Source: a phage. From it: a DNA stretch of 64,000 nucleotides. Shown one piece after another: positions 2,161 through 50,497 of the stretch. The notes below the pieces were generated by a model, which made no database searches, was not told where the DNA came from, and saw only the letters and a program-made list of their open reading frames with translations. The stretch is from the sequence record PZ496580.1. One strand, given 5' to 3'. Numbering within the stretch: position 1 is the first letter of the stretch; each line of letters starts with the position of its first letter. Position numbers and translations under genes: made by a program.

Positions 2161-3300
2161 ATGACACAAGAGATAGAATTACGCAATACTGGAATTAAGT
2201 TTGCGCATTTCGATGAGGACTCCGCGACATTTACCAGCATTTCAGAAAATAACTCTGTAATGTATAAACTTGAGGTTAGAGGATCTAATGCGGATTCTAC
2301 CAAACCAGCAAGGATTAGATTTAATGGAGTGGAGATCGTTGGCACTGGTTATGAAAATGGCCTAAATTTTAAAGTTCTTACTCCAACTGGACAATTACAC
2401 GAAGAAAAGGTATTCTATGGTCGAGGTGCTGTTTTGGCAATGCGTGATTATCTTTCTTTGCTGAAAGGTGATTATATCATTGCGATGGCAACGCATGGAG
2501 AATTGTTTGCAGATCCGGTAAGTGATGATGTATTTTCTAAGCTGGGATCGGTATCATTCCCGAATCACATTTTGCTACAGCAAATGCCTCGTGTATCATA
2601 TGCAGCAATTTATTCTACGAAAATGGGTAAAATTGTTTGTGAAGGTATGCAAGCGACCCACGGGGAAGGACAAGATTCATCTATACAAATTGAGAAGGTT
2701 TATGATACTATAGATGATCTTGCTATAACAGGAACACCACAACGATTTTTAGATTATCCGGTTGAATATGTTAGCGAAGATGCCGAACATTTCGAGCTAG
2801 TACAATGGCCTCATGATGAGATCAGCGCACCACTTGAATATTTTAACATAAAGGCAGGTGACAAACTATCAATATCTTTTGAATTGTTCCGTGATAGTGC
2901 CGCAGCCGCAGCCAACGTAACAGCGCGTTTCTATCACAACTACTTCACCGATGGACAATATAAAACTGGTGTTCGATACAATGCCAGCAAAAAAGATCAA
3001 TGGGAAAAGTTTGAAGCCGTCTATACCGTACCGGAAGGAGTTGATAGTGTAGTAACTGGTTGCGTTAGATATCCAACCAACTCCAATGAAGGTATTGTTA
3101 AAGTTAGAAACATACTAATAACGCCGATCAGTGGAGTCGTCAAAACTACTGGTCCTACTTCATTTGGTGTTAATGGTGTTAGAACAACTCATATTCAGGA
3201 TAACGGTGATTTTACTAACCCTGTAATGAGTCTTCTTAAACTACCCAGAGACAATAAACATATCACATCCAACAACTTTAAAGAGTTCGATGTTGATTAA
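2161..3300 (+). CDS. 35: Long tail fiber hinge connector gp35 (379 aa)
   Basis: Position between 34 and 36; size close to T4 gp35 (372 aa). Assignment mainly by synteny. Confidence 0.7.
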   Translation: MTQEIELRNTGIKFAHFDEDSATFTSISENNSVMYKLEVRGSNADSTKPARIRFNGVEIVGTGYENGLNFKVLTPTGQLHEEKVFYGRGAVLAMRDYLSLLKGDYIIAMATHGELFADPVSDDVFSKLGSVSFPNHILLQQMPRVSYAAIYSTKMGKIVCEGMQATHGEGQDSSIQIEKVYDTIDDLAITGTPQRFLDYPVEYVSEDAEHFELVQWPHDEISAPLEYFNIKAGDKLSISFELFRDSAAAAANVTARFYHNYFTDGQYKTGVRYNASKKDQWEKFEAVYTVPEGVDSVVTGCVRYPTNSNEGIVKVRNILITPISGVVKTTGPTSFGVNGVRTTHIQDNGDFTNPVMSLLKLPRDNKHITSNNFKEFDVD

Positions 3301-3311
3301 CATTTTTAACA

Positions 3312-3340
3312 AGCCGATCCATGTGGTCGGCTTTATTTTT
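3312..3340 (+). terminator. Rho-independent terminator after gene 35
   Basis: Hairpin AGCCGA-N9-TCGGCT followed by TTTATTTTTAT. Confidence 0.6.
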
Positions 3341-3462
3341 ATACAGTTGGTTAAATTATAACCAAAACGAAGAAAGATCTTTAGAATATAGAAAAGTTTG
3401 TTTCGGTTAAAAATTAGTCAGTGCCTACGGCACGTCGCGAAGCGATATTTTGTTAACATTCT

Positions 3463-3470
3463 ATAAATAC
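3463..3470 (+). promoter_or_regulatory. T4-type late promoter TATAAATA upstream of gene 36
   Basis: Exact TATAAATA 33 nt upstream of the gp36 ATG. Confidence 0.6.
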
Positions 3471-3502
3471 TCGGAACTATAACTAATTTTTGAGGTTACT
3501 TT

Positions 3503-4993
3503 ATGGCAGATTTGAAACATGGATCTACTGTAGGCGGATCTCCCATTTGGACGCAAGGAAACTTGACGATCCAGCCAGCGGGAGATCAGCTTTTCTACAA
3601 AGGTCATAAAATCTATACCGCTTTTGATAGACCTTCGGCTACCGATTTTGATGCTGTTAGTGCATCCGAAGGTGGCACATTTCAAAAGCAAGTTCATTTC
3701 GAGGAAGGTTTAAGCGTAGGTAGCGCATCGGCTGGAGAAACCAAAAAGAATGGTATCTTTAAAGGCCAGAGTGATGCTGCTAATTTTGACGGCGTAAGCT
3801 GGGGTTTGCATTCATGGAAGTCAATCGGCTTTGTTAATGCCCGTGATGGCGTTATCATGGCGTATATTGACACCACAACGGGCGAATTTAAGTCTAAAGG
3901 GACTATCGAAGGGACAACCATTAAAGACACAGGTCAACGCGTCTACAGCCCTGTTAATAAACCGACGAATAATGATTTGGATTTGGTTTCCCGTCGCGGT
4001 GATACTCTCACAGGAACATATAATTTAAACACTGTCACTGTTAAACTATCGGTTGATTCGAAATTAATTGCAAGGGAACGTGATTTAATTAATTTTGATG
4101 CGACTAAGATCTATTATGGTAACGTTCTTGATACGTTGGTCTTCCGAAGTAAAGATGAGCCTACCATTTTTGTTAATGGCAAAGAAGGTCGTTTTTATCA
4201 CACCAACAATAAACCAACTAAAGCCGATGTTGGACTAGGCAATGTCACCAATGATGCACAGGTTAAACGTGCTGGTGATATTATGGAAGGTAACTTGCAA
4301 GCGCCTAGAATGTTGGCGACAAACGATCCTGCTGGTCCTAATGAATTGGTTCGTTTGAGCTACTTTGAGAAAAAATCAATGGTAGCAAATCCAACCATCA
4401 TTGGAAACGTTGATTGGAACACTCTTATTAATCGCGGTATCTATCGTGTGGAAAATGCTGGGTCAGGTACTAACAAACCGTCTGATAGCTATTATAACGG
4501 CGTTTTGATGGTATATCGCCCAGAAGATGCGGTCGGTACTCGTCGAATTGTTCAGGTTTATTATCCTGAATCTATTGACCATCCGATGTGCTGGCGTTCT
4601 TGTTCTAATGAATCATGGACTGCATGGAACTATGTAGATCACCGTAAATTAGCCGATATTCGCTATGTTAACGTAACTGGCGATACCATGACAGGACAGT
4701 TAACTGTTCCGGCTGCAAATGGCGTTAAAACGGCTAGAGGTGCATATAATGGTGATAACTACTATGCTGGGTTAAATAGTGCTGATGGCACGGCTATGAT
4801 TCACCGTATCAGCGATATTAAAGCCACCGAAAAATTGGGTATTACGCACGATTCTAAAGCTGTTTTCATTAAAGCGCGTGGAAATACTCAAGACACAGAC
4901 CGCTATGAACTTTACCACGAAGGCCATAAACCGACACCCGCAGAGGTTGGCGCGGTTCCACTTAATGCGGTGATTGATTTTGGTACTTTCTAA
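3503..4993 (+). CDS. 36: Long tail fiber distal-half connector gp36, enlarged (496 aa vs 221 aa in T4)
   Basis: N-terminus MADLKHGSTVGGSPIWTQGN...PAGD matches remembered T4 gp36 N-terminus MADLKVGSTTGGSVIWHQGN. SD GAGG before ATG. Confidence 0.85.
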   Translation: MADLKHGSTVGGSPIWTQGNLTIQPAGDQLFYKGHKIYTAFDRPSATDFDAVSASEGGTFQKQVHFEEGLSVGSASAGETKKNGIFKGQSDAANFDGVSWGLHSWKSIGFVNARDGVIMAYIDTTTGEFKSKGTIEGTTIKDTGQRVYSPVNKPTNNDLDLVSRRGDTLTGTYNLNTVTVKLSVDSKLIARERDLINFDATKIYYGNVLDTLVFRSKDEPTIFVNGKEGRFYHTNNKPTKADVGLGNVTNDAQVKRAGDIMEGNLQAPRMLATNDPAGPNELVRLSYFEKKSMVANPTIIGNVDWNTLINRGIYRVENAGSGTNKPSDSYYNGVLMVYRPEDAVGTRRIVQVYYPESIDHPMCWRSCSNESWTAWNYVDHRKLADIRYVNVTGDTMTGQLTVPAANGVKTARGAYNGDNYYAGLNSADGTAMIHRISDIKATEKLGITHDSKAVFIKARGNTQDTDRYELYHEGHKPTPAEVGAVPLNAVIDFGTF

Positions 4994-44241: not shown

Positions 44242-44796
44242 CTAAAAATTTTTAACACCATATTCACCAAAATAAAGATCAACCGCTTTGTCATAAGCTC
44301 TGGCCGCATCTTCTTCGTTGACATAATACCCAAGAGATATTAGTTTATCATTATTTCGTATTCTTGCAACCCATTTCTTCGTATGTTTATGCCAGCTAAC
44401 CCCTTTATACTTGCTTGCTTTATTCTTGTACTTTCCAACGTTACAAGCATTTTTCTTTGCGTCGGACTCTCTAAGATTGCGCGGTGCGTTGTTTAAAGGA
44501 TTTCGGTCTATATGATCTATAATTTCTGGTTGTGTTCCATGCTCAAGAAACCATACAATACGATGTACATATGGCTTTAAAACCCTCCCATTATCCATAA
44601 CAATTGCAATTTGGAGATGATCCTGACTTTTAAAAGTTTTTACTTTATCTCCTGCCTTATAAAACTTTCCTTCGTAATTCTTTCCTCCGGCTCGGCTATT
44701 CTTTAAATGATAAAGAATACCATCGTCGTCATGTCTATATCTTTCTCGTATAATTCGTTGCGTTTCTTCATCCCACAATTTGGAACGTCTACTCAT
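44242..44796 (-). CDS. Freestanding HNH homing endonuclease with C-terminal AP2 DNA-binding domain (184 aa)
   Basis: HRIVWFLEHG...IDHIDRNPLNN HNH motif; YKGVSWHKHTKKWVARIRNNDKLISLGYYVNEEDAARAYDKA is an AP2 domain. Confidence 0.8.
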   Translation of the reverse strand: MSRRSKLWDEETQRIIRERYRHDDDGILYHLKNSRAGGKNYEGKFYKAGDKVKTFKSQDHLQIAIVMDNGRVLKPYVHRIVWFLEHGTQPEIIDHIDRNPLNNAPRNLRESDAKKNACNVGKYKNKASKYKGVSWHKHTKKWVARIRNNDKLISLGYYVNEEDAARAYDKAVDLYFGEYGVKNF

Positions 44797-45175: not shown

Positions 45176-45409
45176 TTATTTTCCTTCTGGGATATAGTCG
45201 ATGATTAAAGAAAATTCATCTTCTGATACATTATAGCTATGTGAGATTGTACCCGTAAAGACCTCAAGGTCCGGTGATTTGATATTGCACGGATCGATAA
45301 TCACCGGAACGCCGCAATCTCTCAAAAATAATTTGGCGAAATACGGCACAAGGTCAGTTTCAAACTCTGCTTCTTCCAGCAAACGGGAAATGTTAATTTT
45401 CAATCTCAT
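45176..45409 (-). CDS. Hypothetical protein (77 aa)
   Basis: ORF overlapping the gp55 stop. Confidence 0.5.
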
Positions 45410-45926
45410 AAAATTGGTCCAGGCTAGGCAATTCCTCGGTCAATACATCTTCAACCTTTGGCGCTTTCGGTTTATTGACCGATTCCTCGTAGTTGTTGAT
45501 TTTATCGTAAATGTCCTGTATGAATGCCTCATCCGCAATCTGGCACATATCAGCGTCGCGTTCGTCATATACATGATGCACAAAATATTTGTATTTTGCG
45601 GCGGTTGCTGTTCTTTCTTTTTTAATGCGCTGTACAAAGGCATTAAAGCACGCTTGCGTAATGTAAGCATGAGGATTTTTATACTTTGTCTCGTCAAAAT
45701 TAATCAAACCCTTGACCGCCGCTTCGATTCCATCGTCGATCATTTCTTCGCGCCACGTTTGACTATAGCCAGAAAAGTTAAAACGCCGTGATAGATTTTT
45801 AGAGATTTGCATAATTGCTAGGCCGATTTGGTCGCTCATTGGCACTTGTCGACCTTCGGCTGCAATTCGTTGTTTCCAACGGCAAATTTCTTCGTAAAGC
45901 TCTTTATTGTTTACATAATCAGACAC
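45393..45926 (-). CDS. 55: Late-transcription sigma factor gp55 (177 aa)
   Basis: [11 protein letters not shown]...[22 protein letters not shown]...[29 protein letters not shown] is near-identical to remembered T4 gp55. Confidence 0.95.
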
Positions 45927-45966: not shown

Positions 45967-47436
45967 CTATTCCCCATTACCATTATACTTTCTTTGCTTA
46001 GTTATCCACACTCTAACCATCTCTACAGATTCGCCGTCAGACGGATCAAGAGTTTTTCCTTTTTTCTTCATGCGGTACTTAAATCCGTTAAATCTTGCAT
46101 TCTCTTGCTCGTTAAAGTCGAACATCTTTTTAAATGATTTTCGCCCTTTACGCTCACCGCATTCTAGAGGAATCATTCGGTCTGTTATTACATTGGCATT
46201 AGGTAGAAACGTTTTTAGATAATCTACCAACGCCCAATCAGGAACATATAGATTAACATTCTCCTTGCTCTCGTTGTCTCTCAGGTTACAACGCAAACAT
46301 AATTGAAATGCTGGTTCCAGATAATCAGACACATGACGCGCTTTCAAAAACTCGTTTGTTGGGAGATCGCAACTATTAGCAAGACCTTTTAAAATATCAA
46401 TCTCCCATCGTTGAGGGTTAAAGCTGAACATCACAGCAACATTTTTATGATGAATGTAAGAGTTAAGACCATAAGATCCGTAAGGTATCCGCTCACCAAT
46501 ACCATTTGTGCACGCTTCTCGGTCCCGATTCACGGTATAAATGAAGTCATCACCACATTCATTTTTAACCATATCAACAAGACGTTCAAAGGTATTGTTT
46601 GTTTCTGACTGGTGACGCGACCATCGTTCAGAGTCCGTCATAAGGATGATATTAACTCTATCTGTATTTTTATACTCTTTGAAATATAGTCTGGATTCTA
46701 GCGCACTCGGAACAAAATCACAATTTGCATAGTATCGTAGATACTTCCCACTATATGTATCAAAGAGATTTGCACATGCTATCGTAACCTTTTTAAAGTC
46801 TCCCCACGTACCGTGTTTGTTATCGTTCAAGAAAACAATTTTCGACCCATTCTTCCGGTGGCCTTCGTTATGTTTTACCATAACGTTGATTTTCTTCTCT
46901 AATAACGCCTCATAAAGCCCTCTAAGAGAAGAATCGATCATATCAGTACCATCCTTTGCACTTTCTATCTTTTCTTTGATAGCGGCCTTCTCAGAGTCTT
47001 TTAGAACTAAGTTCTGTAGGCATTCCGATTCGTCGGCGATTGGTTCGCAATGCTTCGTGATAAGTTCAAGATTAGACTTAAACGGATACTCATTAAATTC
47101 AACCAGTTGAGGAACTTCATCAATGTAAAGAGCATAATCACCAAACATTTTTGAACGTTCCATATTAGATAACGCTGTATGTGTAATGAATATCACATCA
47201 GCACCATCTTTAACTGATTGCATTATCGACGCTTGCACTGTCTTAAGGCTTCTTAGTCTTGTGCTATCAATCAAGACAGCACGACCGCCCATTCTTTTAA
47301 ACTTATTGTAAGATTGTTCACTTAAAACACGAGATGGCGAAGCAATAACCGCTTTTTCTTTTGTCTCTAGGACGTGGGAAAGTATAGCATCAGTTTTCCC
47401 CGCCGCTGGCAATGCGATTAATGTTTCAATCTTCAT
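45967..47436 (-). CDS. Unassigned P-loop NTPase (489 aa) with helicase-like motifs I, Ia, II at the N-terminus
   Basis: Walker A ALPAAGKTD (res 8-16), ASPSR (Ia-like), YIDEVP (Walker B/DExx-like); Cys-containing C-terminal half without recognisable helicase motifs III-VI. Confidence 0.6.
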   Translation of the reverse strand: MKIETLIALPAAGKTDAILSHVLETKEKAVIASPSRVLSEQSYNKFKRMGGRAVLIDSTRLRSLKTVQASIMQSVKDGADVIFITHTALSNMERSKMFGDYALYIDEVPQLVEFNEYPFKSNLELITKHCEPIADESECLQNLVLKDSEKAAIKEKIESAKDGTDMIDSSLRGLYEALLEKKINVMVKHNEGHRKNGSKIVFLNDNKHGTWGDFKKVTIACANLFDTYSGKYLRYYANCDFVPSALESRLYFKEYKNTDRVNIILMTDSERWSRHQSETNNTFERLVDMVKNECGDDFIYTVNRDREACTNGIGERIPYGSYGLNSYIHHKNVAVMFSFNPQRWEIDILKGLANSCDLPTNEFLKARHVSDYLEPAFQLCLRCNLRDNESKENVNLYVPDWALVDYLKTFLPNANVITDRMIPLECGERKGRKSFKKMFDFNEQENARFNGFKYRMKKKGKTLDPSDGESVEMVRVWITKQRKYNGNGE

Positions 47437-47723
47437 TAGAAACCCTTACGTCGTGCTTTCTGACATTTCTTGATCATTTTATCAGAAATTTCGCGCTTCG
47501 GTGCAATCTCTTTCACACCGAAAGCACTAATGCCAAATTCAGAGAGAATATATTCAACCAACAATTCACGCACACGCGCTTTACCGATATTCACGCCGTT
47601 ATTTTTCAGATATGTCTGGCCTTCGACTTGCATCAGATCTAAATCCGCGTCGGTAATATTGATTTCTTCCATGCGCCCAAATCGAGAATAAACCATGTGT
47701 GCGATTGCATTGTGTACTAACAT
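47436..47723 (-). CDS. Hypothetical protein (95 aa from ATG at 47723), co-transcribed partner of the P-loop NTPase
   Basis: Track start 47741 is TTG; ATG at 47723 preceded by GAGG; stop overlaps the NTPase start. Confidence 0.5.
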   Translation of the reverse strand: MLVHNAIAHMVYSRFGRMEEINITDADLDLMQVEGQTYLKNNGVNIGKARVRELLVEYILSEFGISAFGVKEIAPKREISDKMIKKCQKARRKGF

Positions 47724-47744
47724 AATATATTCCTCACTCAAGAA

Positions 47745-47903
47745 TTACTTAATGATACTTACTTTACCAGATCCGTGACAATGAGCGCAACACCCATCAC
47801 CACGCAATCCTGTTCCGTTACAGTGTTTACACGTCTTCAACGGTAAAGCCATTATAGCAAATAAAGCAATAATGAACACCGAAACTAAATTCTCAATAAT
47901 CAT
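47745..47903 (-). CDS. Small membrane zinc-ribbon peptide (52 aa)
   Basis: Not in ORF track. MIIENLVSVFIIALFAIMALPLKTCKHCNGTGLRGDGCCAHCHGSGKVSIIK: one TM helix plus CxxC-x8-CCxxC. Confidence 0.4.
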   Translation of the reverse strand: MIIENLVSVFIIALFAIMALPLKTCKHCNGTGLRGDGCCAHCHGSGKVSIIK

Positions 47904-48162
47904 AAATCGCCCTCAGTTCTTTATAGCCTCCAATGTGCTCGTTGTCAATGAATATCTGGGGGTATACAAATCGGAGGCTCTTTGAGTTCAGCCTCCCCGC
48001 CAGTTCTTCAATCATATCACGGTCGGGAATAATGTCAACCCCAACCTGCTTGAATACTGGTTTAAGTGTATACGGAATACCCAGATCATCCAGTAGCTTC
48101 ATTGCACTAATACAACCATAACAATGATAAGCCTCTTTCGGTATACCGTATATCTCGATCAT
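47893..48162 (-). CDS. nrdH: Glutaredoxin-like protein NrdH (89 aa)
   Basis: CYGC redox motif in glutaredoxin-like context; located between 55 and nrdG as in T4. Confidence 0.6.
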   Translation of the reverse strand: MIEIYGIPKEAYHCYGCISAMKLLDDLGIPYTLKPVFKQVGVDIIPDRDMIEELAGRLNSKSLRFVYPQIFIDNEHIGGYKELRAIYDY

Positions 48163-48665
48163 TTCTCAGCCTTTAATCTTTCTAGTTCTTCTTCCAGTTC
48201 CTTAATGCGCTTCTCGCGTTCAATATCACGTTGGATCTTAGTGGCGAATACTCGTTTAAACTGACTATAGTCATCAATTTTAAATACTTCCTCTTCACCA
48301 TATCGACGTACAGAAACTTCGTAGTTGTTGAAAAATTGTTCCAACATTGCATCAGTGGTCAGTTCTGCCGATACCACTTTAAAATGACGTTCTTCTGATT
48401 GCAAAAACCAGTTGTGCGCGTATTCCCGTACATCATCAACATTGCGGCAGGTGTATACCGTGCCATCAATTTCAATCGCAGAAACATAATCATCATCCGA
48501 TGCATGGTGATCAAATGCAATAACTTTAAATGGACGGTCGCCGATAAACTCTGCTATTGCATCATTTGCAACGCTAAAGTTTGCAAAATCTTTTCTCGTT
48601 TTCTTATCTTTCCACTGATAGGTCACGCCAGCAACAAACATATTACCATCCTCGCTCTTTACCAA
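48159..48665 (-). CDS. Paralog-family protein (168 aa): one beta-domain plus coiled-coil tail
   Basis: Shares GxTYxWKD...PFKV...IEIDGxxYT...WF motif block with ORFs at 48643-50497 and 54320-56957; C-terminal KRIKELEEELERLKAEK. Confidence 0.6.
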   Translation of the reverse strand: MVKSEDGNMFVAGVTYQWKDKKTRKDFANFSVANDAIAEFIGDRPFKVIAFDHHASDDDYVSAIEIDGTVYTCRNVDDVREYAHNWFLQSEERHFKVVSAELTTDAMLEQFFNNYEVSVRRYGEEEVFKIDDYSQFKRVFATKIQRDIEREKRIKELEEELERLKAEK

Positions 48666-49467
48666 TCAAAAATTCAACTTCACGACGTTTAATGTCTTCT
48701 TGAAGGTCTTTAATCTTCTGTCGATCTTGCATGATTTCGTCCATCTTGTCAAGTGCTGCAATGAAATCATCGAAACGTTCAAAGGTTTTACCTTCATTTG
48801 CTTCGCTAAATTTAACCATAGTCAGACCGTAACGACTACTAAACAGACGTTTCAACTGTCCAACGATCTTAGAATCAGTGGTTATAACTTCCAATTCTTC
48901 TACTTCTTGAAAGAATTTTCTATCAGAATCAATAAACCAGCTAGTTCCTTTATGGTCTCTATCTCCGGTTGCGCTCATTAGAGTATGGTCTTTACCATCA
49001 ATTTCAATTACATCAATTTGCCCACATGGACTAACATTTTTAACAGTAAAAGGTCTATAATTTATTGCTCGTGCAATAACATAATTAAGGTTAGATACGT
49101 TTTCAGCATAATGGCAGAAGTCGGTCATAGCCTTCGCATCTTTCCAAGTATAAGTTTTACCAACTTCCCATTTCTGGGGAACTTCTTCAACTTCACGAAA
49201 GAATTTTCTATCGAATGGACTAAAGAAATATGTTGCAGTCCAAATGTCTTTTCCTGTAGCAGTTTTCGCCGTATGATAAACACCGTCTAGCTCTATTGCA
49301 TTAATCCAACCGTTACCCTCGATCTCGATGATGGTAAATGGCTTGTCACCAATAGCTGCACTAATATCGCTGTTAAGTGGAGAAAGAACACCTTCTCCGT
49401 TAGTAATAAACTCAGTTTTAGCGTTTTCATCTTTCCAAGTGTAAGTTTTACCAATTTCCCATTTCAT
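48643..49467 (-). CDS. Paralog-family protein (274 aa): two tandem domains plus helical tail
   Basis: KWEIGKTYTWKD and KWEVGKTYTWKD each begin a ~95-aa repeat ending in DRKFF(R/Q)EVEE. Confidence 0.6.
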   Translation of the reverse strand: MKWEIGKTYTWKDENAKTEFITNGEGVLSPLNSDISAAIGDKPFTIIEIEGNGWINAIELDGVYHTAKTATGKDIWTATYFFSPFDRKFFREVEEVPQKWEVGKTYTWKDAKAMTDFCHYAENVSNLNYVIARAINYRPFTVKNVSPCGQIDVIEIDGKDHTLMSATGDRDHKGTSWFIDSDRKFFQEVEELEVITTDSKIVGQLKRLFSSRYGLTMVKFSEANEGKTFERFDDFIAALDKMDEIMQDRQKIKDLQEDIKRREVEFLIGKERGW

Positions 49468-49479
49468 AATATATTCCCC

Positions 49480-49959
49480 TTAACCGATTTTATCAAGTTC
49501 GTTTAATGCTTTCTCTGCTTCCTGTATAGCTTGCACCCTTTCCGGCATTTTGTCAAGAAAATCTTTCAACTCTTCAAAACTGGAGATATGACGCAAGGCA
49601 TTAGCACCGATAGCCGCATGTGATTTGCATTCAAAGCGAATTTTATAATTATCCATCGCCAACTTGAGAAGATCAATTAGTTTAGATTCTTCTGGAATAA
49701 TAATTTCTTCAAATCTGCTACGGTCGTGATCCAGAAACCAACAAGATAGACCTACATCGGTTGAACTCATATAAGTTCCATCATGAAGATATACAGATCG
49801 CACGTATCCTTTTTTCGCATCAACCGACGCAACTTTAAACGGTAATCTCAGATATTTCAAATAATCAACATCATACCATTTAAAAAATTGGTTTGCATCT
49901 TTTACATCTTTCCACGCATAGGTCTTACCAGCTTCCCATTTCATAATATCATCTCTCAT
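49480..49959 (-). CDS. Paralog-family protein (159 aa)
   Basis: KWEAGKTYAWKD...PFKV...; C-terminal LKDFLDKMP tail motif. Confidence 0.6.
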   Translation of the reverse strand: MRDDIMKWEAGKTYAWKDVKDANQFFKWYDVDYLKYLRLPFKVASVDAKKGYVRSVYLHDGTYMSSTDVGLSCWFLDHDRSRFEEIIIPEESKLIDLLKLAMDNYKIRFECKSHAAIGANALRHISSFEELKDFLDKMPERVQAIQEAEKALNELDKIG

Positions 49960-50497
49960 TTTTGATACGTGATTCTAATTGGATCATACGGTCGCGCGTT
50001 TGCTTGTATTCGCGGATAGCACCGATACGGCTAGGCATACCATTTAGAACGCTCTTAATACCTTCTAGGGTAGTAATTTTAGCAATGCTATTATGTAACC
50101 CCATCTTATCGATTAACTGAATATCGTAGGCTTCCATAAGCAGACCCAGACGTTCTAAGGTTAAATCTTGTTCTTTATCTTCTTCCTTTTCTTCCGGTTC
50201 TGGGATTTCTTTGTTAATAGTAGCTTCGGTAAAGAAACGACGCTCACCTGCCCAAAACCACACACCGGAAAAGCCAATAGGGGATTCTTTTAACGTCATA
50301 GAGTCGTAACCACTGCCGATAATAGTAATTTCTCTAACATCACCATCATCGTCAATGTCTTCTACCCTAAACGGGCGACCAGCCAACAAGTCCACAATAC
50401 ATCTGTTAATAGACGACGAAAATTTAGTCAGTTCGGCTTTCGACGCTTCGCATTCAATCTTGTAAGTTTTACCAACTTCCCATTCCATAATAATCAC
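49949..50497 (-). CDS. Paralog-family protein (182 aa)
   Basis: EWEVGKTYKIE...RPFRVEDID...; Glu/Lys-rich linker and helical tail. Confidence 0.6.
   Translation of the reverse strand: MIIMEWEVGKTYKIECEASKAELTKFSSSINRCIVDLLAGRPFRVEDIDDDGDVREITIIGSGYDSMTLKESPIGFSGVWFWAGERRFFTEATINKEIPEPEEKEEDKEQDLTLERLGLLMEAYDIQLIDKMGLHNSIAKITTLEGIKSVLNGMPSRIGAIREYKQTRDRMIQLESRIKNER

Follow-up and report, generated by a model that had tools for sequence, protein, structure and literature searches.

What is the 489-amino-acid (aa) ATPase that many non-T-even relatives of bacteriophage T4 encode near gene 55, and what might it do there? This question is raised by positions 45,967 to 47,903 of a 64,000-nucleotide (nt) stretch of phage DNA (sequence record PZ496580.1), referred to here as the window. 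The 2-kb segment is 99% identical to RB49, JSE, GEC-3S, kvi and about 55 further Krischvirus genomes, and the window therefore comes from a Krischvirus, an RB49-like T4-type phage. Our analysis indicates that the 489-aa protein is a complete, divergent two-lobed superfamily 2 (SF2) helicase, as predicted from sequence conservation and a structure model. It appears to be the helicase-only form of a phage and mobile-element family that is elsewhere fused to an archaeo-eukaryotic-type (AEP) primase-polymerase for element replication. We propose that it probably works as an ATP-driven SF2 motor, likely a DNA helicase or translocase, that is expressed early, coupled to a homologue of T4 gp55.2 and accessory to the gp41/gp61 replisome.

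The segment holds three open reading frames (ORFs), all annotated as genes in RB49 and about 59 near-identical phages. With their flanking genes they are as follows:

45967..47436, minus strand: 489-aa ORF, gene for an SF2 helicase-fold ATPase (RB49p044 orthologue, phrog_2467; from the ORF, phrog_2467, Pfam DEAD, the AlphaFold2 model and fold comparison)
47436..47723, minus strand: 95-aa ORF, gene for a gp55.2 homologue (Pfam DUF7570 and tblastn to T4 55.2)
47745..47903, minus strand: 52-aa peptide ORF (phrog_3931, E 1.1e-9)
47893..48162, minus strand: nrdH glutaredoxin gene, upstream flank (Pfam Glutaredoxin, phrog_22, RB49 annotation)
45393..45926, minus strand: gene 55, late sigma factor, downstream flank (phrog_234, E 4.8e-63; RB49 annotation)

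All genes of the block lie on the minus strand and are transcribed in the order nrdH, 52-aa ORF, 95-aa ORF, 489-aa ORF, gene 55, corresponding to RB49p047 to RB49p043. The ATG of the 52-aa ORF lies 11 nt within the end of nrdH. The 95-aa ORF has a GAGGA ribosome-binding site 7 nt 5' of its ATG (an alternative upstream TTG start gives 101 aa), and its stop codon overlaps the start of the 489-aa ORF in the sequence TAATG. A 40-nt spacer containing a small GAAA-loop hairpin separates the helicase stop from gene 55. A first-pass annotation, made from the DNA letters and their translations, had drawn this arrangement correctly: the three ORFs are real, the overlap of the 95-aa stop with the 489-aa start is present, and the block lies between gene 55 and nrdH.

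The same annotation had quoted ALPAAGKTD (residues 8-16), ASPSR (32-36) and YIDEVP (104-109) from the 489-aa protein correctly, had recognised none of the later helicase motifs, and had left the protein as an unassigned P-loop NTPase whose C-terminal half contains Cys. The protein can in fact be assigned and its C-terminal half belongs to the helicase, because alignment, structure model and fold comparison all show both lobes. Two alignments were considered, one of 28 T4-like homologues (32-74% identity) and one of 60 distant representatives that are 19-39% identical to the window protein. Among the T4-like homologues, conserved blocks extend over the full length (PAAGKT, IASxSRxLSxQS, IFITHxAL, YIDEVP, VTIAxAN, FIYTxNSYR, HGLN, FSYNP and EPAFQLCxRxNxR), P10, G13, K14 and T15 are invariant, as are E445 and W477 in the C-terminal tail, and the only invariant cysteines are C130 and C380, with no Cys cluster. 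In the window protein, a motif-III-like VTIACAN is followed in the second lobe by a motif-IV-like FIYTVN..R (298-306), HGLN (322-325), FSFNP (337-341) and a motif VI, QLCLRCNLR (378-386). The corresponding features of the gene are:

47392..47409, minus strand: Walker A or motif I, P10-AAGKT15 (conserved in the 28- and 60-homologue alignments)
47110..47127, minus strand: Walker B or motif II, Y104-IDEVP109 (D106 and E107 invariant in both alignments)
46846..47106, minus strand: insertion (~90 aa, residues ~111-197) that separates motif II from the motif-III-like TIACAN (AlphaFold2 secondary structure)
46177..46674, minus strand: predicted second RecA-like lobe, residues ~255-420 (AlphaFold2 model and family-wide invariant residues)
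45970..46176, minus strand: C-terminal tail (residues 421-489), basic and predicted to form three helices (alignment and model)

The only invariant columns in the 60 distant relatives are G13, K14, D106, E107, G323, N325, Q378, R382 and R386, that is, residues of Walker A, Walker B, motif V and the motif VI arginines. Such a set reads as the signature of an enzyme whose ATPase chemistry has been under selection.

Sequence libraries gave little beyond this. The protein matches phrog_2467, annotated as of "unknown function", at E 2.9e-175, and Pfam DEAD just above threshold (27.3 bits against a cutoff of 26, E 3.4e-6, residues 11-130); at E<=1 Pfam returned only DEAD, AAA_34 and noise. NCBIfam and PADLOC held no significant match for the helicase or the gp55.2 homologue, and PDB sequence searches, whether with the single sequence or with a profile, found nothing meaningful for the 489-aa protein. 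Fold comparison alone was successful. Structure prediction and a Foldseek search, suggested in the first-pass annotation, gave a confident AlphaFold2 model on the 28-homologue alignment (mean predicted local distance difference test score 87.3, predicted template modelling score 0.77), with two alpha/beta lobes, the ~90-residue insertion after motif II and a three-helix basic tail. Against the PDB, this model retrieved XPD first (3crv, E 1.5e-10), then DinG and CasDinG (to 1e-7), then hundreds of SF2 proteins. The XPD, DinG and CasDinG alignments span 315-367 residues and both RecA lobes, while DEAD-box structures, lower in the lists, are aligned over one lobe only. The sequence and fold features that mark SF2 are thus found in the window protein: PAAGKT at residues 10-15, IDEV at 105-108, a second lobe, and motifs V and VI (QxxxRxxxR). 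It is not a true member of the XPD/DinG family, since it lacks an iron-sulphur (Fe-S) domain, shows no clustering of Cys and matches neither DEAD_2 nor Helicase_C_2; those two signatures are also absent among the matches listed for 70 relatives scanned at E<=0.01-0.05.

A profile search of 1.84 billion representative sequences placed this protein in a large family, with 1331 proteins at E<1e-3 and 765 at E<1e-10. Among the best 146 representatives, 75 have lengths of 400-620 aa and 65 of 621-1000 aa. In the long forms the helicase is extended at the C-terminus by some 300 aa, which include the motifs LVLDFExGD, NTYxHT..PRFRV and SGLDxSK and end in helices. A hidden Markov model of this extension, which has the AEP fold, detects it in 67 of about 190 family proteins and not in the window protein. 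One relative, P0121 (profile E 6.4e-28), has the reverse order, with AEP motifs and a zinc motif N-terminal to the helicase. The commonest fusion, in which the helicase is N-terminal and AEP-PriCT C-terminal, and the opposite order are both retrieved by the T4-like profile. The Bradyrhizobium long forms probably correspond to the "bll5242-like" AEP family.

The helicase nature of this protein was suspected in 2006, when Nolan et al. gave a weak match of RB49ORF044c to DEAD/DEAH (E 0.069; PMC1524935), and at least one GenBank record of the 489-aa protein bears the label "putative helicase". The family was predicted in 2018 by Kazlauskas et al. as a virus and plasmid SF2-like helicase family whose closest homologues are in T4-like phages (pVOG1685/pVOG9714; PMC5862659). 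It is not a new kind of system. New here are points of detail: that the helicase-N/AEP-C architecture dominates, how large the family is, that an XPD/DinG-like fold occurs without an Fe-S domain, and the quantified synteny with 55.2. Our literature search found no experimental study of the helicase.

Since DEAD is the sole Pfam match above threshold and many DEAD-box structures appear lower in the fold lists, the protein might be a DEAD-box-type RNA helicase acting on phage or host transcripts. We regard this as highly improbable: the top folds are DNA helicases aligned over both lobes, the Q motif and an N-terminal extension are absent (Walker A begins at residue 10), motif II reads DEVP and not DEAD, and the family is fused to DNA primases.

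The ORF that overlaps the helicase start, which had been described as an unnamed partner, can be identified. It matches DUF7570 with 99.2 bits (cutoff 27, E 1.4e-28, profile positions 1-94), and by tblastn it is 41.7% identical to T4 55.2 over 98% of its length (E 1e-11). On these matches the 95-aa ORF is a true homologue of gp55.2. The T4 protein binds DNA, inhibits topoisomerase I of E. coli and raises the fitness of the phage; the inhibition has been demonstrated for T4 gp55.2 only (PMC4396842). Both genes occupy the same place downstream of nrdH, and they differ in what follows: 55.1 (87 aa) in T4, the helicase gene in the window. The T4 order is nrdH-55.6..55.3-55.2-55.1-55-a-gt.5..a-gt.2-mobB-a-gt-47, and the 489-aa gene therefore sits in the 55.1 slot, upstream of gene 55. 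The first-pass annotation had placed the block roughly where T4 carries alpha-glucosyltransferase; that slot lies beyond gene 55, and the window has a-gt.4/a-gt.5 homologues and an HNH-AP2 endonuclease gene there.

By tblastn the helicase occurs in 244 phage records and in none of the T-evens, which bears out the earlier statement that it corresponds to no T4 protein. Its carriers are Krischvirus and RB16/RB43-type phages and phages of Aeromonas, Proteus, Serratia, Morganella, Erwinia, Cronobacter, Citrobacter, Enterobacter and Klebsiella. Synteny was examined in 29 helicase-carrying viral contigs. Upstream of the helicase, nrdH was present in all but one (28 of 29) and a 55.2 homologue in 27. 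In about 20 contigs this homologue abuts or overlaps the helicase gene, and in the others 0.8-2 kb lie between the two; downstream, gene 55 was present in 21. None of the 29 contigs was found to contain 55.1.

In the Aeromonas phage 25 genome (L004), the gene that overlaps the helicase start (2929-3504) is called a "DprA-like DNA recombination-mediator protein" in RefSeq, and likewise in Aes012. The Aeromonas phage 25 protein has no Pfam match at E<=0.1 and the annotation looks unsupported; for want of Pfam support, this gene was given no weight.

The tight coupling of the helicase gene to that of a topoisomerase I inhibitor homologue bears on a second alternative, a DinG-like repair or conflict helicase that clears R-loops, RNA polymerase and other blocks ahead of phage forks. 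Such an enzyme would be needed, on this account, because inhibition of topoisomerase I by gp55.2 promotes hypernegative supercoiling and R-loops; topoisomerase I deficiency is reported to yield R-loops (10.1101/2021.04.16.440247). The nearest solved folds, DinG, XPD and CasDinG, agree with it, and a study of CasDinG describes that protein as functional without an Fe-S domain and able to unwind double-stranded DNA and RNA/DNA hybrids (PMC10450177). Nevertheless, an Fe-S domain and the DEAD_2 and Helicase_C_2 signatures are missing from the window protein, the likeness in fold may reflect lobe orientation only, 55.2 is kept by T-evens that have no helicase, and the primase fusions favour initiation over repair. 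We consider this role unlikely.

The surroundings of the more distant relatives also point to replication. Every inspected context is a phage or an integrated element. Three islands (L013, L014 and L017) begin with a P4-type integrase, AlpA/HTH_17 and a helicase or helicase-primase, followed by cargo; in a fourth (L016) the helicase is accompanied by a resolvase, AAA_25 and a PolB exonuclease domain; one copy (L012) adjoins an ATP-dependent ligase, and others are in phage contigs. In two of the islands, both on metagenomic contigs (L013, 8168-20834, and L014), the P4-type integrase and HTH_17/AlpA gene are joined by an 814-aa helicase-primase, and the cargo has a defence-like look: Metallophos, PLD-like and Mrr_cat proteins and an ADP-ribosylglycohydrolase/phosphatase fusion. 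This island may be satellite-like or a defence island, with a replicase of an uncharacterised fusion type.

The occurrence of long-form relatives on islands with such cargo (PLD, Mrr, Metallophos) would suit an anti-defence factor or a defence decoy, an accessory ATPase that counters or is sensed by host immunity and has no role in replication. So would the position of the window gene in a variable accessory (hyperplastic) region and its absence from the T-evens; it is probably non-essential. The island helicase, however, belongs to the replication module and not to the cargo, the primase fusions favour replication, the catalytic motifs are strictly kept across a very large family, and PADLOC gave no significant match. 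An anti-defence role is thus very unlikely in our judgement, and this role and that of an RNA helicase are less likely than that of a DinG-like enzyme or of an origin-binding initiator. The first-pass annotation had offered a replication, anti-defence or DNA-modification ATPase: the NTPase assignment stands, and of the roles it named replication agrees with the reading favoured here, while anti-defence and modification are unsupported.

In T4, replication is initiated in a transcription-dependent manner from R-loops and through recombination. An initiator of a different kind, a sequence-specific origin-binding protein similar to herpesvirus UL9, is the remaining alternative: the helical tail would bind specifically to a phage origin, which the motor would then melt, and gp55.2 would assist by preventing negative supercoils from being relaxed. 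Non-T-even relatives of T4 would thereby have a means of firing origins through a protein. Relatives in the replication-initiator slot after int-AlpA of integrative islands, and relatives fused to primases, speak for such a protein. So do weak C-terminal helix-turn-helix (HTH) matches in several relatives of about 500 aa (P0061, HTH_23 at E 2.3e-4, and P0066), all below the Pfam threshold, and in one relative a weak match of the first lobe to Herpes_ori_bp (PF02399, E 0.0014, 17.3 bits against a cutoff of 20). Kazlauskas et al. also remarked on the UL9 similarity of a sister group, pVOG9714 (PMC5862659).

Gene-free, repeat-rich DNA beside distant homologues has been counted in favour of an initiator as well. 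Stretches of 1-2 kb without genes adjoin three of them (L011, 1731-3899; L008, 9497-10672; L010, 7196-8186), and the first, in Pseudoalteromonas phage PH357, contains at least eight copies of short palindromes of the types TTGCAAC-N3-GTTGCAA and GTAAC-N-GTTAC. Such stretches could be origins, or arrays of early promoters or operators.

Against an initiator, the HTH and UL9 matches all fall below Pfam thresholds and none is in the window protein, and beside its gene there are neither iterons nor gene-free DNA; the only repeat family nearby is in paralogous genes upstream of nrdH. The related idea that the helicase substitutes for MotA-dependent R-loop origins was rejected, as four phages, Aeromonas 25, Aes012, Serratia PS2 and Providencia PSTRCR_121, carry MotA together with the helicase. 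A UL9-like initiator is an unlikely candidate. It is equally unlikely that the helicase and gp55.2 form a protein-driven origin-opening module, common to or derived from island helicase-primase replicons and lost in the T-evens; if they did, the R-loop- and recombination-dependent initiation of T4 would be derived and not ancestral.

Signals for the expression of the block were sought in the sequence. A consensus scan found the following site within nrdH:

48011..48038, minus strand: sigma-70-like promoter match, TTGACA-16-TATGAT with an upstream TG (11 of 12 positions)

This match, just 5' of the 52-aa ORF, might serve the three genes as an early promoter. RB49 has no annotation for it, and sigma-70-like sites in the region are no more numerous than in shuffled sequence. 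The T4 late-promoter core TATAAATA occurs once in the 64 kb, at 3462, against 5.6 expected from shuffles, which fits early transcription of nearly all window genes. A late promoter for the helicase block was discarded, since this sole copy is far from it.

We therefore return to the reading that we favour, an accessory replication motor coupled to gp55.2. In RB49-like phages and many other non-T-even T4 relatives, the helicase would be expressed early from a single transcript with the gp55.2 homologue and be translationally coupled to it. It would open or remodel phage DNA at the start or restart of replication, at origins, R-loops, D-loops or stalled forks, on a template that gp55.2, as an inhibitor of host topoisomerase I, would hold negatively supercoiled. 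The ORFs, the predicted fold, the conserved motifs, the size of the family, the primase fusions, the island contexts and the synteny are results of the analysis; DNA rather than RNA as the substrate, early expression, any functional link to gp55.2 and a role in the replication of T4-like phages are inferred, and by analogy with XPD and DinG the polarity would be 5'-3'.

Several points weigh against this proposal. T4-like phages already carry gp41, gp59, gp61, Dda and UvsW, so that no missing function demands another helicase. Neither a primase domain nor a recognisable DNA-binding domain is present in the 489-aa protein, and its only Pfam match, DEAD, is to a family that includes RNA helicases. 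Its tail, considered as a PriCT or HTH domain, was rejected as either: hhalign of the T4-like tail with the PriCT part of the long forms gave a probability of 1%, and the HTH matches are sub-threshold and in other relatives only. The helicase and gp55.2 are not obligate partners, because T-evens keep 55.2 without the helicase; 55.2 is present in 1093 phage records, all T-evens included, against 244 for the helicase. The 0.8-2 kb that separate the two genes in some phages of the Aeromonas, Serratia and Erwinia types count in the same direction. Finally, the family is so far a computationally predicted one.

The other genes around the block stand apart from the helicase-55.2 pair. The 52-aa peptide, essentially confined to Krischvirus and outside that conserved pair, has an N-terminal hydrophobic helix followed by two CxxCxGxG motifs, as in a DnaJ-type zinc centre, and gives weak matches to DnaJ zinc fingers. 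Beyond gene 55 lies one further feature:

44242-44796, minus strand: HNH-AP2 homing-endonuclease gene next to gene 47, in the place of mobB and alpha-gt of T4

This gene is a mobile insertion, because phage W115 has no HNH-AP2 gene at the same place. Upstream of nrdH, the interval between nrdG and nrdH (48159-50497, minus strand) holds four paralogous genes of 168, 274, 159 and 182 aa (RB49p048-051), an array that is not annotated as such. The motif M(K/E)WE(I/V/A)GKTY..WKD opens the 159-, 182- and 274-aa paralogues, the last of which also has an internal copy, and the 168-aa paralogue has only a divergent form, VTYQWKD. A 69-nt DNA repeat occurs at four sites of the array, with 67-75% identity to the reference copy.

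T4 is the textbook model of phage DNA replication. Most of its non-T-even relatives carry an additional, strictly conserved helicase at a fixed position beside the homologue of a topoisomerase I inhibitor. A very large, so far only predicted class of replication proteins, the helicase-primases of phages and integrative islands, has this helicase domain as its motor. RB49-like phages grow on E. coli K-12 and are expected to be genetically tractable, so that this gene would be a convenient entry to the whole family and would let one ask whether non-T-even phages start or restart replication unlike T4. Ordinary in kind, the gene is of moderate interest as a conserved helicase that could readily be studied by experiment in phages related to the best-studied model of replication.

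Among known systems, T4 UvsW is likewise an SF2 helicase from the same phage group, and the first-pass annotation had named a match of this type as the outcome that would overturn its view; the 489-aa protein is not UvsW, since homology to it over both helicase lobes was looked for and not found. The nearest folds, with both RecA lobes aligned, are those of XPD/Rad3, DinG and CasDinG. In contrast with XPD and DinG, which have a 4Fe-4S domain between motifs Ia and II, residues 37-101 of the window protein are ordinary RecA fold with not even a vestige of such a domain. Its ~90-aa insertion (111-197) follows motif II, in the topological position that the Arch domain takes in XPD/DinG, and could be a counterpart of it. 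PDB searches and Pfam show no sequence match between these proteins and the window protein, which at 489 aa is much shorter and has DEVP as motif II where they have DEAH. Herpesvirus UL9 (PF02399) and the window protein are both SF2 helicases of viruses in which Walker A lies close to the N-terminus, and a role in replication initiation, as for UL9, is plausible for the helicase family; the window protein differs in having neither the C-terminal origin-binding domain of UL9 nor a match to PF02399. The closest known system is the family of Kazlauskas et al. (PMC5862659). Its primase-linked forms contrast with the stand-alone helicase of the window, which has no primase domain, and in its all3500-type primases the helicase is C-terminal, whereas in the commonest fusion described here it is N-terminal. 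The two have in common their homologues in T4-like phages and the fusion of the same helicase domain to an AEP primase.

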